This document shows positions 29,562 to 32,468 of a stretch of 64,000 nucleotides of DNA, piece by piece. Made by a program: the position numbers and the translations under genes. The first letter of the stretch is position 1; every line of letters begins with the position of its first letter. The stretch is taken from NCBI GenBank assembly GCA_903857825.1, contig CAIOGI010000010.1, forward strand, positions 46,542 through 110,541, read 5' to 3'. The DNA is from Candidatus Tayloriibacteriota bacterium (GTDB taxonomy: Bacteria > Patescibacteriota > Minisyncoccia > Phycocordibacterales > PALSA-1337). The notes beneath the pieces are model-generated. The model did no database searches. It saw only the letters and a list, made by a program, of their open reading frames with translations, and had not been told where the DNA came from.

Positions 29562-32468
29562 TTAAATGACTATATTTATAAGTTTTCCTTTGATAAAAAT
29601 AACCTTTTTTATCTCTTTATCCACAAGCCACTTATTAATCTCTGAAATTTTCTTTATCTCCTCTCTTACAAAACTTTCATCTGCTTCTATATTCGCCTCT
29701 ATCATTCCCCTCACTTTACCATTAATTTGTACCATTATTGACACTGTGTCGCTTACAAGTTTCTTCTCATCATACTTTGGCCATTTTTCAGTGTGAATTG
29801 ATTTTTTGTTTTTTAGATTTGCCCATATTTCTTCTGTAAAATGTGGGGCAAATGGTGATAACAGTCTTAGTAATATTTCATAATGCTCTTTGCTTACAGC
29901 TTTTCCCTTTTCTATTTCATTTACAAGTATCATCATTCCACTAATTGCTGTATTAAACTTCATGTCCTCAATATCTTCAGTGACTTTCTTTATAGTTTTA
30001 TGAACTAATATATTCAGACTATCACTGTGTCCTCTCAGCGACAATGGATCTGTCTTCGTGGCATAGCCAGTCGACAGACCATAGTCGCTTGCGGACACAT
30101 TACCAAATACAACTTTTTCCTGCAATTTCCAAACCTTTTCTATAAATCTTCTTGCTCCTGCTATGTTATTTGTATCCCAAGCAATAGCTTGATCGAAGGG
30201 TCCCATAAACATTTCATATATTCTCAAGGTATCCGCTCCGACAGTCTTAACAATATCATCTGGATTTATTACATTTCCTCGAGATTTTGACATTTTCTCA
30301 CCCCCCTCAGCTAGAATCATACCGTGAGATGTGCGCTTTTTGTACGGCTCACTGGTAGGTACTAGACCTTGATCAAAAAGGAATTTATGCCAAAAACGAG
30401 AGTATAACAAGTGTAGTGTTGTATGTTCCATACCACCGTTATACCAGTCTACCTGACCCCAATATTTCAACTTTTTCTTGTCTGCAAAAGCCTTATTATT
30501 TTTCGGATCCATATAGCGTAAATAGTACCAGCTTGAGCCTGCCCAATTTGGCATTGTATCTGTTTCTCTCTTTGCCTTTCCTTTACACTTTGGGCACTTC
30601 GTATTTACCCATTTATCAATTGATGCGAGCGGACTCTCACCACTCTCTGTTGGTGCATAATTTTTAACCTTTGGTAATTTCAAAGGTAATTCTTTGTCTG
30701 GCAATGGAACAATCCCACATTTTTCACAATGAACAACAGGAATAGGCTCACCCCAATAACGTTGACGTGAGAATATCCAGTCGCGGAGTTTAAATTTGGT
30801 AACCCACTTACCTCCGACAAATTCGGTGATTTCTTGCTTTACTGACTCAGAATCCTTGCTGTTGAATTTGCCAGAATTAATTAAAAGACCTTTTTCAGTA
30901 CTCGCATTATTTAGATTGTTTAAGCGGTGTAACCAAATATCTAACTCTCCACAACGCATTGTGTCTGGACGAATATCTTTTAGATCTAGCCAAATTGGCT
31001 CATGTTTTTCAGATTCATCTTTACTTACAGTTCCAGAAGCATCGCCGTCCAATTCGAACAATGCAACATTAAAATATGCCACTCTATTTTCATCCTTATG
31101 CGCGGCGAAGAATTCACTTTTTACTGGACCACCAAGTATTCTAATGAATTTTAAATCTTTAATTCCAGTCTCTTCCAATATTTCTCTTCGAGCCGCTGTT
31201 TCAACGTTTTCACCTTCCTCAACTCCCCCAACAACAAAAGTGGTCCATGGTTGCTTTTTCCACTTCAGACACAAGATTTTGCCATTTTTAGGGTTTCTAA
31301 TTATTGCTTGAATGGCTTTTCTTTCTACAACTTTCTTTCCAGCAACATGAGGATTTATATAATCAATTCTTACTGGCATTACTACGTCTCGTATTTCAAG
31401 TCTATATTTCTTCGCAAAGTCCCAGTCTCTTTCATCATGTGCTGGTACAGCCATTACTGCTCCCGTTCCGTAGTCTGCTAAAACATAGTCAGCAAGCCAA
31501 ACTGGCACCTCTTCATTGTTTGCTGGATTTATAGCTTTTACACCCTTTAGTTCAACTCCAGTTTTTTCAGTCTTTGCATCTGTTCTATCAATTTCACTCT
31601 TTGTCTTTGATTCTTTAATATATTTTTCAACATCAGCCTTGTTCGAAACTTTAGCAATTAATTCACCAACAAATTCATGTTCTGGTGCAAGAACTACATA
31701 AGTAACTCCAAACAACGTATCTGGCCTAGTCGTAAATACCTTAATTTTTTTATCATTACCTTTTATTTGAAAGTCAATTTCAGCTCCCTCACTCTTTCCT
31801 ATCCAATTCCTCTGCTGTATCTTTATCTTTTCAAGAAAATCTGTTTCATCTAGGTCTTTATCAAGTCTTTCGGCGTATTTTGTAATAGCAAGCATCCATT
31901 GCTCCTTTTCCTTTTTCTCTACTTTCGTTCCACATCGCTCACAGCAACCATTTATAACCTCTTCATTAGCAAGACCAGTCAAATCCTTTGGACACCAATT
32001 GATAGTCATTTTTTTCTTGTAAGCCAAACCTGCTTTCAAGAATTGTAAGAAAATCCACTGTGTCCATTTATAGTATTTTGGATCAGTAGTATCTATTTCA
32101 CGAGACCAGTCAAAAGAAATACCGAGAGATTTTATTTGCTTTTTAAATGTATCAGAATTTTTCTTTGTAATTATTGCAGGGTTAATACCTGTCTTTATCG
32201 CATAATTCTCTGCTGGCAAACCGAAAGCATCCCAACCTATCGGGTACATTACATTAAGACCCTCTGCACGCTTTTTGCGGGCAATAATATCCATTCCCAC
32301 GTATGATCTAGGATGTCCTATATGAAGTCCTGCTCCAGAGGGATAAGGAAACTCAATCAGGGCATAAAACTTTTTCTTTTTGCTATCCTCTTTGACTTTA
32401 TTTGGCTTTTTCTTCTCCCAAACTTTCTGCCATTTCGTTTCTATTTTTTTATGATCATATTCATTCAT
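29562..32468 (-). CDS. leuS: leucine--tRNA ligase carrying an inserted Nudix hydrolase domain
   Basis: HIGH ([10 protein letters not shown]), editing-domain TTRPDT and [12 protein letters not shown], KMSKS; Nudix box [23 protein letters not shown] at residues about 414-436. Confidence 0.95.
   Translation of the reverse strand: [968 protein letters not shown]

Follow-up and report, generated by a model that had tools for sequence, protein, structure and literature searches.

Why does a leucyl-tRNA synthetase (LeuRS) carry a second enzyme within its proofreading domain? Few enzymes are as conserved as the aminoacyl-tRNA synthetases, and the domains that have been added to them in bacteria are few and usually RNA-binding. 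The question is raised by the leuS gene of Candidatus Tayloriibacteriota bacterium, a member of the candidate phyla radiation, in a 64,000-nucleotide stretch of contig CAIOGI010000010.1 (positions 46,542 to 110,541), which is referred to here as the window. In this gene, a surface hairpin in the C-terminal portion of the CP1 editing domain hosts a nested Nudix domain, and the host protein has, by its sequence, the appearance of a functional, bacterial-type LeuRS.

The initial annotation of this DNA had proposed an in-frame fusion of LeuRS and a Nudix hydrolase, and inspection of the open reading frame bears this out, with a single frame that runs over 968 aa without a stop or a frameshift. The protein scores 1025 bits against the TIGR00396 leuS_bact model (cutoff 548.4), the match consisting of two stretches that flank the insert, and it matches the Thermus thermophilus LeuRS (1h3n) with E = 2.2e-217 and 727 bits. 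The CP1 domain is recognized by the Pfam editing profile PF13603 at 221 bits, and residues T246, T247, R248, D250, T251, D345 and D348 are invariant in an alignment of 48 LeuRS relatives (alignment A2). Alignment to 1h3n pairs residues 1-363 with T. thermophilus residues 1-362 and residues 519-722 with 373-581. In the closest insert-free relative, P0022, the corresponding segments are 1-363 (query 1-363, 83% identity) and 373-798 (query 520-968, 81% identity). By these alignments the insert comprises 155-156 residues (364-518/519; window 30912/30915-31379) and replaces a loop of 10 residues in T. thermophilus LeuRS and of 9 residues in P0022, for a net gain of ~146 aa. The coordinates first proposed for it, 30926-31331, cover residues 380-514 and so lie within the insert, which on measurement proved wider.

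The placement of the Nudix domain after the editing domain, as initially annotated, has to be revised. Upstream of the insert, PF13603 is matched at positions 1-144 of 185 only. Removal of residues 364-518 in silico produces a match to positions 1-183 of 185 in one stretch, as seen in P0022. Because excision restores a contiguous editing-domain profile, the Nudix domain lies inside CP1. The features of the gene and its product are collected in Table 1.

Table 1. Features of the leuS gene and its product, with positions in the window
Feature	Residues	Window position	Strand	Basis or remark
leuS, bacterial-type leucyl-tRNA synthetase with nested Nudix domain	968 aa + stop	29562..32468	minus	single open reading frame
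HIGH motif	49-52	32313..32324	minus	H49, G51, H52 invariant in alignment A2
CP1 editing domain, N-terminal part	220-363	31380..31811	minus	PF13603 positions 1-144
TTRPDT editing motif	246-251	31716-31733	minus	invariant in alignment A2
AHDERD editing motif	343-348	31425-31442	minus	invariant in alignment A2
Inserted segment, Nudix domain and short linkers	364-518	30915..31379	minus	alignments to 1h3n and P0022
Pfam NUDIX PF00293	383-502	30963..31322	minus	profile 3-121 of 134, E = 1.4e-15
Nudix box	414-436	31161..31229	minus	exact fit to GX5EX7REUXEEXGU
Metal-binding residues of the Nudix box	E429, E432, E433			
CP1 editing domain, C-terminal part	519-~550	30819..30914	minus	PF13603 positions ~145-183
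KMSKS motif	725-729	30282..30296	minus	K725, M726, S727, K728, S729 invariant in alignment A2

An artefact is excluded. That a frameshift, a chimeric assembly or a mis-called gene should have joined a separate Nudix gene to leuS is vanishingly improbable, because at least 14 contigs, assembled independently from separate ENA, JGI and NCBI samples, encode the identical 968-aa protein. The frame is continuous, the same architecture is found in 114 related clusters, and LeuRS sequence resumes on either side of the insert; the boundaries, flagged at the outset as the place where an assembly fault might hide, show none, and our analysis produced no evidence in favour of one. The composition of the insert is native to the gene (G+C content 0.372 compared to 0.365 in the rest of leuS), and apart from short matches of the kind expected by chance, no direct or inverted repeats were found at its edges. 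A mobile-element or intein-like insertion was considered and rejected on the same composition and repeat data, together with a Pfam scan of the inserted segment that returned nothing besides NUDIX at E <= 0.01.

The insert has the features of an intact enzyme. The textbook Nudix box pointed out from the sequence fits the consensus without deviation and is the only one in all six frames of the window. The profile search that had been suggested as a check on the fold gives 57.9 bits for PF00293 against a gathering cutoff of 21.1. An AlphaFold model of the insert alone has a mean predicted local distance difference test score (pLDDT) of 94.5 and a predicted template modelling score (pTM) of 0.86, and in the full-length model (pTM 0.61) the insert retains pLDDT values of 85-93. 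The predicted structure is the alpha/beta/alpha sandwich of the Nudix superfamily. The metal-binding glutamates, E66, E69 and E70 in insert numbering (to which 363 is added for protein numbering), vary little or not at all among 277 domains. The insert is thus a complete, autonomously folding and very probably catalytically active Nudix pyrophosphohydrolase, and the catalytic residues are under long-term purifying selection.

Is the domain peculiar to this bacterium? The survey of LeuRS from related lineages called for in the initial annotation covered the 120 best clusters (clustered at 90% identity), and PF00293 is present in 114 of them, with the strict Nudix box kept in 110 of the 114. Forms with the Nudix domain have a spacer of 205-217 aa between the AHD and RDW motifs, whereas in the six forms without it the spacer is 30-61 aa long. 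The insert has a mean identity to the query of 50%, equal to that of the anticodon-binding domain. The named relatives are Patescibacteria (Paceibacter, Taylorbacteria, Minisyncoccota, Saccharibacteria and Magasanikbacteria). A search of genome contigs with generic LeuRS patterns, which amounts to no taxonomic census, confirmed at least 8 loci, all with the Nudix domain inside leuS. One locus (L012, CAZRZQ010000044.1), an 8-kb contig of a metagenome-assembled genome labelled “uncultured Gammaproteobacteria bacterium”, encodes a LeuRS with a Nudix box at the same position; its label may reflect a binning error rather than an occurrence beyond Patescibacteria.

When only the flanks of the insert are compared, each insert-free LeuRS has a Nudix-bearing nearest neighbour, with identities of up to 84%. 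On a rough neighbour-joining tree of sequences picked by similarity to the query, parsimony places the domain as present at the root, with at least 4 changes. The Nudix domain thus appears to be ancestral in this clade of LeuRS and has been lost repeatedly, and is therefore dispensable for LeuRS function. Since close relatives have lost it cleanly, it is best regarded as accessory to aminoacylation. Taken as a whole, we hold it highly probable that the module is real, active and accessory.

The same distribution bears on the idea that the domain acts without catalysis, as a structural, tRNA-binding or ligand-sensing module that compensates, e.g., for a missing leucine-specific domain. The leucine-specific domain, found in T. 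thermophilus and E. coli LeuRS and not universal, is absent here: residues 722-725 align to T. thermophilus residues 581-637 and are followed directly by the KMSKS motif (window 30282-30305, residues 722-729). Additional Nudix copies at a site before the editing domain (site A) often carry E57Q or R65A, and non-enzymatic Nudix domains are known, according to a review of the Nudix clan (PMC5389931). However, relatives of the query LeuRS likewise have no leucine-specific domain, and the insert-free ones among them manage without Nudix. In 110 of 114 relatives all catalytic residues of the box are intact in the copy at site B, the site of the query's insert, as they are in the free-standing members of the family described below. 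A non-catalytic role is accordingly hard to credit.

The insert belongs to a distinct Nudix subfamily that is found mostly in Patescibacteria and mostly inside LeuRS. With the insert alone as query, a HMMER search of the full library retrieved 509 cluster representatives at E <= 1e-3, of which 190 reached E <= 1e-10, and LeuRS or fragments of LeuRS make up 104 of the best 150. The subfamily is marked by R383, K458, N461, R462, E485 and W493 in addition to the canonical Nudix box, a signature that holds in every context (277 domains). In insert numbering, the invariant or near-invariant residues are R20, K41, W45, G51, G52, E57, R65, E66, E69, E70, G72, K95, N98, R99, L110, E122 and W130. Within LeuRS, members of the subfamily also precede the editing domain, form tandems at the site used in the query, or lie in the latter half of the catalytic domain, with up to three copies in one protein. 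Copies within one protein are 24-44% identical compared to 58-82% for same-site copies across proteins, and are old paralogues rather than recent duplications. Substitutions in the extra pre-editing copies comprise E57Q in 17/30 and R65A in 12/30.

Free-standing members of ~155-200 aa exist as well, and four of these were checked in their genomic context. At loci L017/L018, the TAA stop codon of P0176 is followed by AT and then the ATG of an insert-free leuS, the genes around them forming the same ychF-DUF5671 synteny block. A leuS that itself carries the insert begins 2 nt downstream of P0136. P0152 begins 13 nt after argS and precedes an ileS with an embedded His_Phos_1 domain, and P0144 adjoins another Nudix gene with no synthetase nearby. 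The association extends to class II synthetases: P0237 (L019:2906-4837) is a prolyl-tRNA synthetase (ProRS) with a Nudix domain of the subfamily between the anticodon-binding and C-terminal domains. Such proteins are rare (5 clusters), and their insert-free relatives are labelled Nanoarchaeota or Woesearchaeota. Split and fused arrangements that occur side by side are a classic signature of a functional link, and because both exist here, such a link between the Nudix subfamily and the synthetase is indicated by the gene arrangements. Fusion most likely came about by capture of an operon partner, since other lineages have the free gene 2 nt before leuS; a free Nudix gene of ~160 aa ending at this distance from the leuS start would have been captured into a permissive loop of CP1.

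A further candidate for a split counterpart was rejected. The 148-aa Nudix gene next to ychF at the syntenic P0022 locus (L003:5230-5676) has no significant similarity to the insert (E = 0.27), is of a different subfamily, and looks MutT-like; the true split form is P0176. It follows ychF at the position where the window has a Fic gene (34689-35786).

The location of the Nudix domain inside an editing domain, and the occurrence of the subfamily in ProRS, another error-prone synthetase, could suggest a part in proofreading, in which mis-activated norvalyl-AMP or isoleucyl-AMP would be hydrolyzed by pre-transfer editing beside the post-transfer site of CP1. Hydrolysis of aminoacyl-AMP was raised in the initial annotation, but we found no specific support for it. 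With its editing motifs intact, CP1 has presumably retained post-transfer editing. The Nudix domain, for its part, was lost on repeated occasions, and the subfamily exists in free-standing form and at other sites. Moreover, aminoacyl-AMP is a mixed acyl-phosphate anhydride and does not have the nucleoside-diphosphate-X linkage that defines Nudix substrates, which makes the reaction atypical for these enzymes. A proofreading role is very improbable.

What, then, would a tethered Nudix enzyme hydrolyze? We favour dinucleoside polyphosphates of the Ap4A/Ap3A/Ap4N type, a substrate class to which we assign a probability of roughly 0.4. Synthetases form dinucleoside polyphosphates when the bound aminoacyl-adenylate reacts with ATP or another nucleotide. 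The nested domain would be an RppH/NudH-like polyphosphate pyrophosphatase that hydrolyzes such by-products, and tethering would place the hydrolase at their source and couple its abundance to that of the synthetase. We favour these compounds because they are by-products specific to synthetase chemistry, because the subfamily tracks both synthetase classes, and because of the similarity to NudH and Ap4A hydrolases. The reading frame, the nesting, the fold, the conserved catalytic residues, the occurrence of both split and fused genes and the repeated loss are observed; catalytic activity, substrate class and any benefit of proximity are inferred. Clearance of Ap4A had been put forward at the start; it is plausible and gains some support from the ties to synthetases and from the likeness to RppH/NudH and Ap4A/Ap6A hydrolases, tempered by scores that stay below the curated cutoffs.

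The evidence from similarity is as follows. When a profile of the subfamily is compared to PDB sequences, 2azw comes first (1e-9, full length), followed by lupin Ap4A hydrolase (6e-8), AvrM14, NudB, NUDT12 and the Aquifex Ap4A hydrolase, with Dcp2, DIPP and RppH further down; MTH1 is not among the 60 matches listed. Foldseek returns generic Nudix matches at 16-24% identity, the best template modelling scores being those of E. coli RppH (0.71), 2azw (0.68/0.72) and the Aquifex Ap4A hydrolase (0.66/0.75). The free-standing P0176 matches the RppH model over nearly its full length with 39.8 bits (cutoff 118). RppH/NudH and the Ap4A/Ap6A hydrolases (lupin 1F3Y, Aquifex 3I7U and T. thermophilus Ndx1 1VC8) share with the insert a compact single-domain fold and an identical catalytic box, but they are free-standing and, at 16-24% identity and with scores below family cutoffs, distant. 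The insert in turn is embedded in a synthetase and has a signature of its own (R20, HKxxNR, E122 and W130). The Enterococcus faecalis MutT/Nudix protein 2AZW differs in being free-standing, from Firmicutes, and 17% identical. Other types fare no better: the insert obtains 16.4 bits with the model of the MutT/MTH1 8-oxo-(d)GTP diphosphatase (NF008044, cutoff 148), and 20-23 bits, in the Nudix box only, with those of ADP-ribose/NADH pyrophosphatases (NF008003 and NF001299, cutoffs 248 and 158). Overall, similarity leans to enzymes whose substrates are polyphosphate-bridged dinucleotides or 5´ caps, without settling the matter for the insert.

Several observations weigh against Ap4A-type substrates. 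First, none of the curated NCBIfam cutoffs for Nudix subfamilies is reached by the insert, and even the best-scoring models, those of RppH/NudH (PRK00714), give 23-25 bits against cutoffs of 116-259. Second, NUDT15, MTH1 and NudI are close behind RppH, 2azw and the Ap4A hydrolase in the Foldseek ranking. Third, Ap4A diffuses freely and needs no tethered hydrolase, and LeuRS is not known to be a major producer of Ap4A. Fourth, a single substrate does not readily account for up to three divergent copies in one protein. Finally, 2azw, the closest solved structure, is listed with undetermined function in the review of the Nudix clan (PMC5389931) and gives for that reason no functional transfer.

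Insertions of other kinds in related synthetases also point elsewhere, to general nucleotide house-cleaning. The LeuRS P0145 contains a full-length Ham1/ITPase insertion (E = 3e-58), P0010 and P0107 contain a HAD_2 domain, and P0008, P0071 and P0104 a serine/alpha-beta hydrolase; the Nudix domain of P0010 is 80% identical to that of the query. These inserts, and the second and third Nudix copies, sit at points that correspond to query residues ~208, 241, 584 and 631, and at the junction of the catalytic and anticodon-binding domains. The main alternative to dinucleoside polyphosphates is accordingly a (d)NTP pyrophosphatase of the MutT/NudI kind, with damaged or non-canonical nucleotides as its targets and LeuRS as an essential, insertion-tolerant and constitutively expressed scaffold. 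Bacteria with small genomes would fuse hydrolases to it for co-expression, without a chemical link to aminoacylation. The Ham1/ITPase, HAD_2 and serine hydrolase inserts are in keeping with this, as are the IleRS with its His_Phos_1 domain and the surroundings of P0152, which lies among genes for a dUTPase, Tmk/dNK-type kinases and three other Nudix proteins. A single-sequence search of the PDB, which gave the MutT/Nudix protein 3smd and MTH1 as best matches, points the same way, as does the presence of NUDT15, MTH1 and NudI in the top Foldseek results, and several divergent copies per protein fit several substrate specificities. On the other hand, house-cleaning leaves the confinement to synthetases unexplained (104 of 150 in LeuRS, the operon forms with a 2-nt spacing, and the ProRS copy). 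With the family profile, MTH1 drops out of the 60 matches listed while Ap4A-hydrolase, cap and RppH types rise, and the MutT model of NCBIfam gives 16 bits against a cutoff of 148. We consider this alternative unlikely, if the most substantial of those discussed here.

The rise of cap-acting enzymes and RppH in the same comparison, and the fact that CP1 binds the acceptor end of tRNA-Leu, bring RNA 5´ ends into consideration. An RppH-like activity could remove a 5´-triphosphate or a NAD or Np4A cap from CP1-bound tRNA-Leu or another RNA. However, all scores are far under the family cutoffs, the free members, the other LeuRS sites and the ProRS copy share no single geometry, and the domain is dispensable in close relatives. 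Mature tRNA, in addition, normally bears a 5´-monophosphate generated by RNase P. Action on RNA ends is in our view distinctly doubtful. A wider possibility, comparably speculative, is that the synthetase-tethered Nudix domains, the Ham1, HAD and serine-hydrolase modules and the ProRS copy belong to an unrecognized system of prokaryotes with ultra-small genomes that couples nucleotide or RNA-end chemistry to charging. In one version, an RppH-like module by the acceptor end would strip 5´-triphosphates or Np4A/NAD caps from bound tRNA. In another, hydrolysis of an Ap4A-type alarmone would be gated by the conformational cycle of CP1, such that charging status controls alarmone levels.

Both the enzyme and the fold are known; it is the nested architecture and the Nudix subfamily that appear to be undescribed. 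The initial annotation was aware of no description of the fusion, which agrees with a full-text literature search, outside the scope of which lie most subscription journals, that found no paper describing a LeuRS-Nudix protein (absence in such a search is not proof), and with the 2017 review of the Nudix clan, in which tRNA synthetases are unmentioned (PMC5389931). Release 20 of NCBIfam holds no dedicated model for Nudix-bearing LeuRS, while an IleRS bearing an N-acetyltransferase (GNAT) domain has one (NF040702). The fusion is nonetheless common in sequence databases and present in hundreds of lineages related to this bacterium. Public records give the protein no name other than “leucyl-tRNA synthetase” or “class I tRNA ligase family protein”, and current annotation thus hides a Nudix subfamily behind the name of its host.

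Comparison with known systems helps to delimit what is new. Canonical LeuRS (T. thermophilus 1H3N/2BYT and E. coli 4AQ7) has the same core, the HIGH and KMSKS motifs, the Thr-rich and Asp motifs of CP1, and the same anticodon-binding and C-terminal domains. It differs in the CP1 loop, of ~10 residues where the query has a Nudix domain of 155 aa, and in the leucine-specific domain (T. thermophilus 581-637) that the query is without. The IleRS of NF040702 is a precedent for a class Ia synthetase that carries an unrelated enzyme domain, but host and guest are others. The bifunctional NadM-Nudix fusion of NMN adenylyltransferase and ADP-ribose pyrophosphatase (PMC7824862) likewise joins a nucleotidyltransferase of the HIGH superfamily to a Nudix domain, and the substrate of the latter is an adenylate-containing product from the pathway that the two share. 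In this case, however, the domains are in tandem rather than nested, and an ADP-ribose/NAD-type Nudix domain is attached to a host other than a synthetase. A whole bacterial radiation has placed a second, apparently active enzyme in the proofreading domain of LeuRS, repeatedly, at several sites and alongside other hydrolases of small molecules. This suggests a testable link between tRNA charging and the turnover of dinucleoside polyphosphates and nucleotides, or the processing of RNA ends. Natural pairs with and without the domain, such as the query and its 81-83% identical relative P0022, could be used as experimental controls.

Some additional observations concern the protein, its relatives and the surrounding DNA. 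A segment of ~23 aa at the start of the anticodon-binding domain (residues 790-812, window 30033-30101) is missing from the 81%-identical P0022 and is predicted to be disordered (pLDDT <50). Locus L015:1-10498 interleaves synthetase and nucleotide-metabolism genes: four Nudix genes, Tmk/dNK, a zeta-toxin-like kinase, dUTPase and argS. Its IleRS, of 1184 aa, has an embedded His_Phos_1 phosphatase domain.

The window encodes ribosomal proteins, rpoA, dnaK/dnaJ/grpE, three other synthetases, a chemotaxis operon, a type IV pilus and sensor kinases; scans for tRNA genes and Rfam families across it returned nothing relevant. At 32941-34092 on the plus strand, a 383-aa open reading frame is the lone plus-strand gene in a long minus-strand array. 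It has a G+C content of 0.42-0.47 compared to 0.34 for the window, no Pfam match on record and an N-terminus that on inspection looks hydrophobic. The P0022 locus has a counterpart of similar size (386 aa) at the equivalent position, which likewise lacks a Pfam match but is encoded on the leuS strand. A block of motility and sensing genes at 36973-55957 is large for a Patescibacteria bacterium with a small genome. It encodes chemotaxis proteins (CheY-like regulators, CheD, CheC, CheA-CheW and CheB), type IV pilus components (MshEN/T2SSE ATPase, T2SSF and N_methyl pilin) and a pair of dCache-HAMP sensor proteins, of which one also contains PAS and HisKA domains. Finally, interspersed with housekeeping genes are two Fic-domain genes and several genes of toxin-antitoxin type, the latter with nucleotidyltransferase, HepT-like, NTase_sub_bind and PemK domains, at 4487-5233, 5996-6385, 9254-9652, 10629-11489 and 34689-35786.

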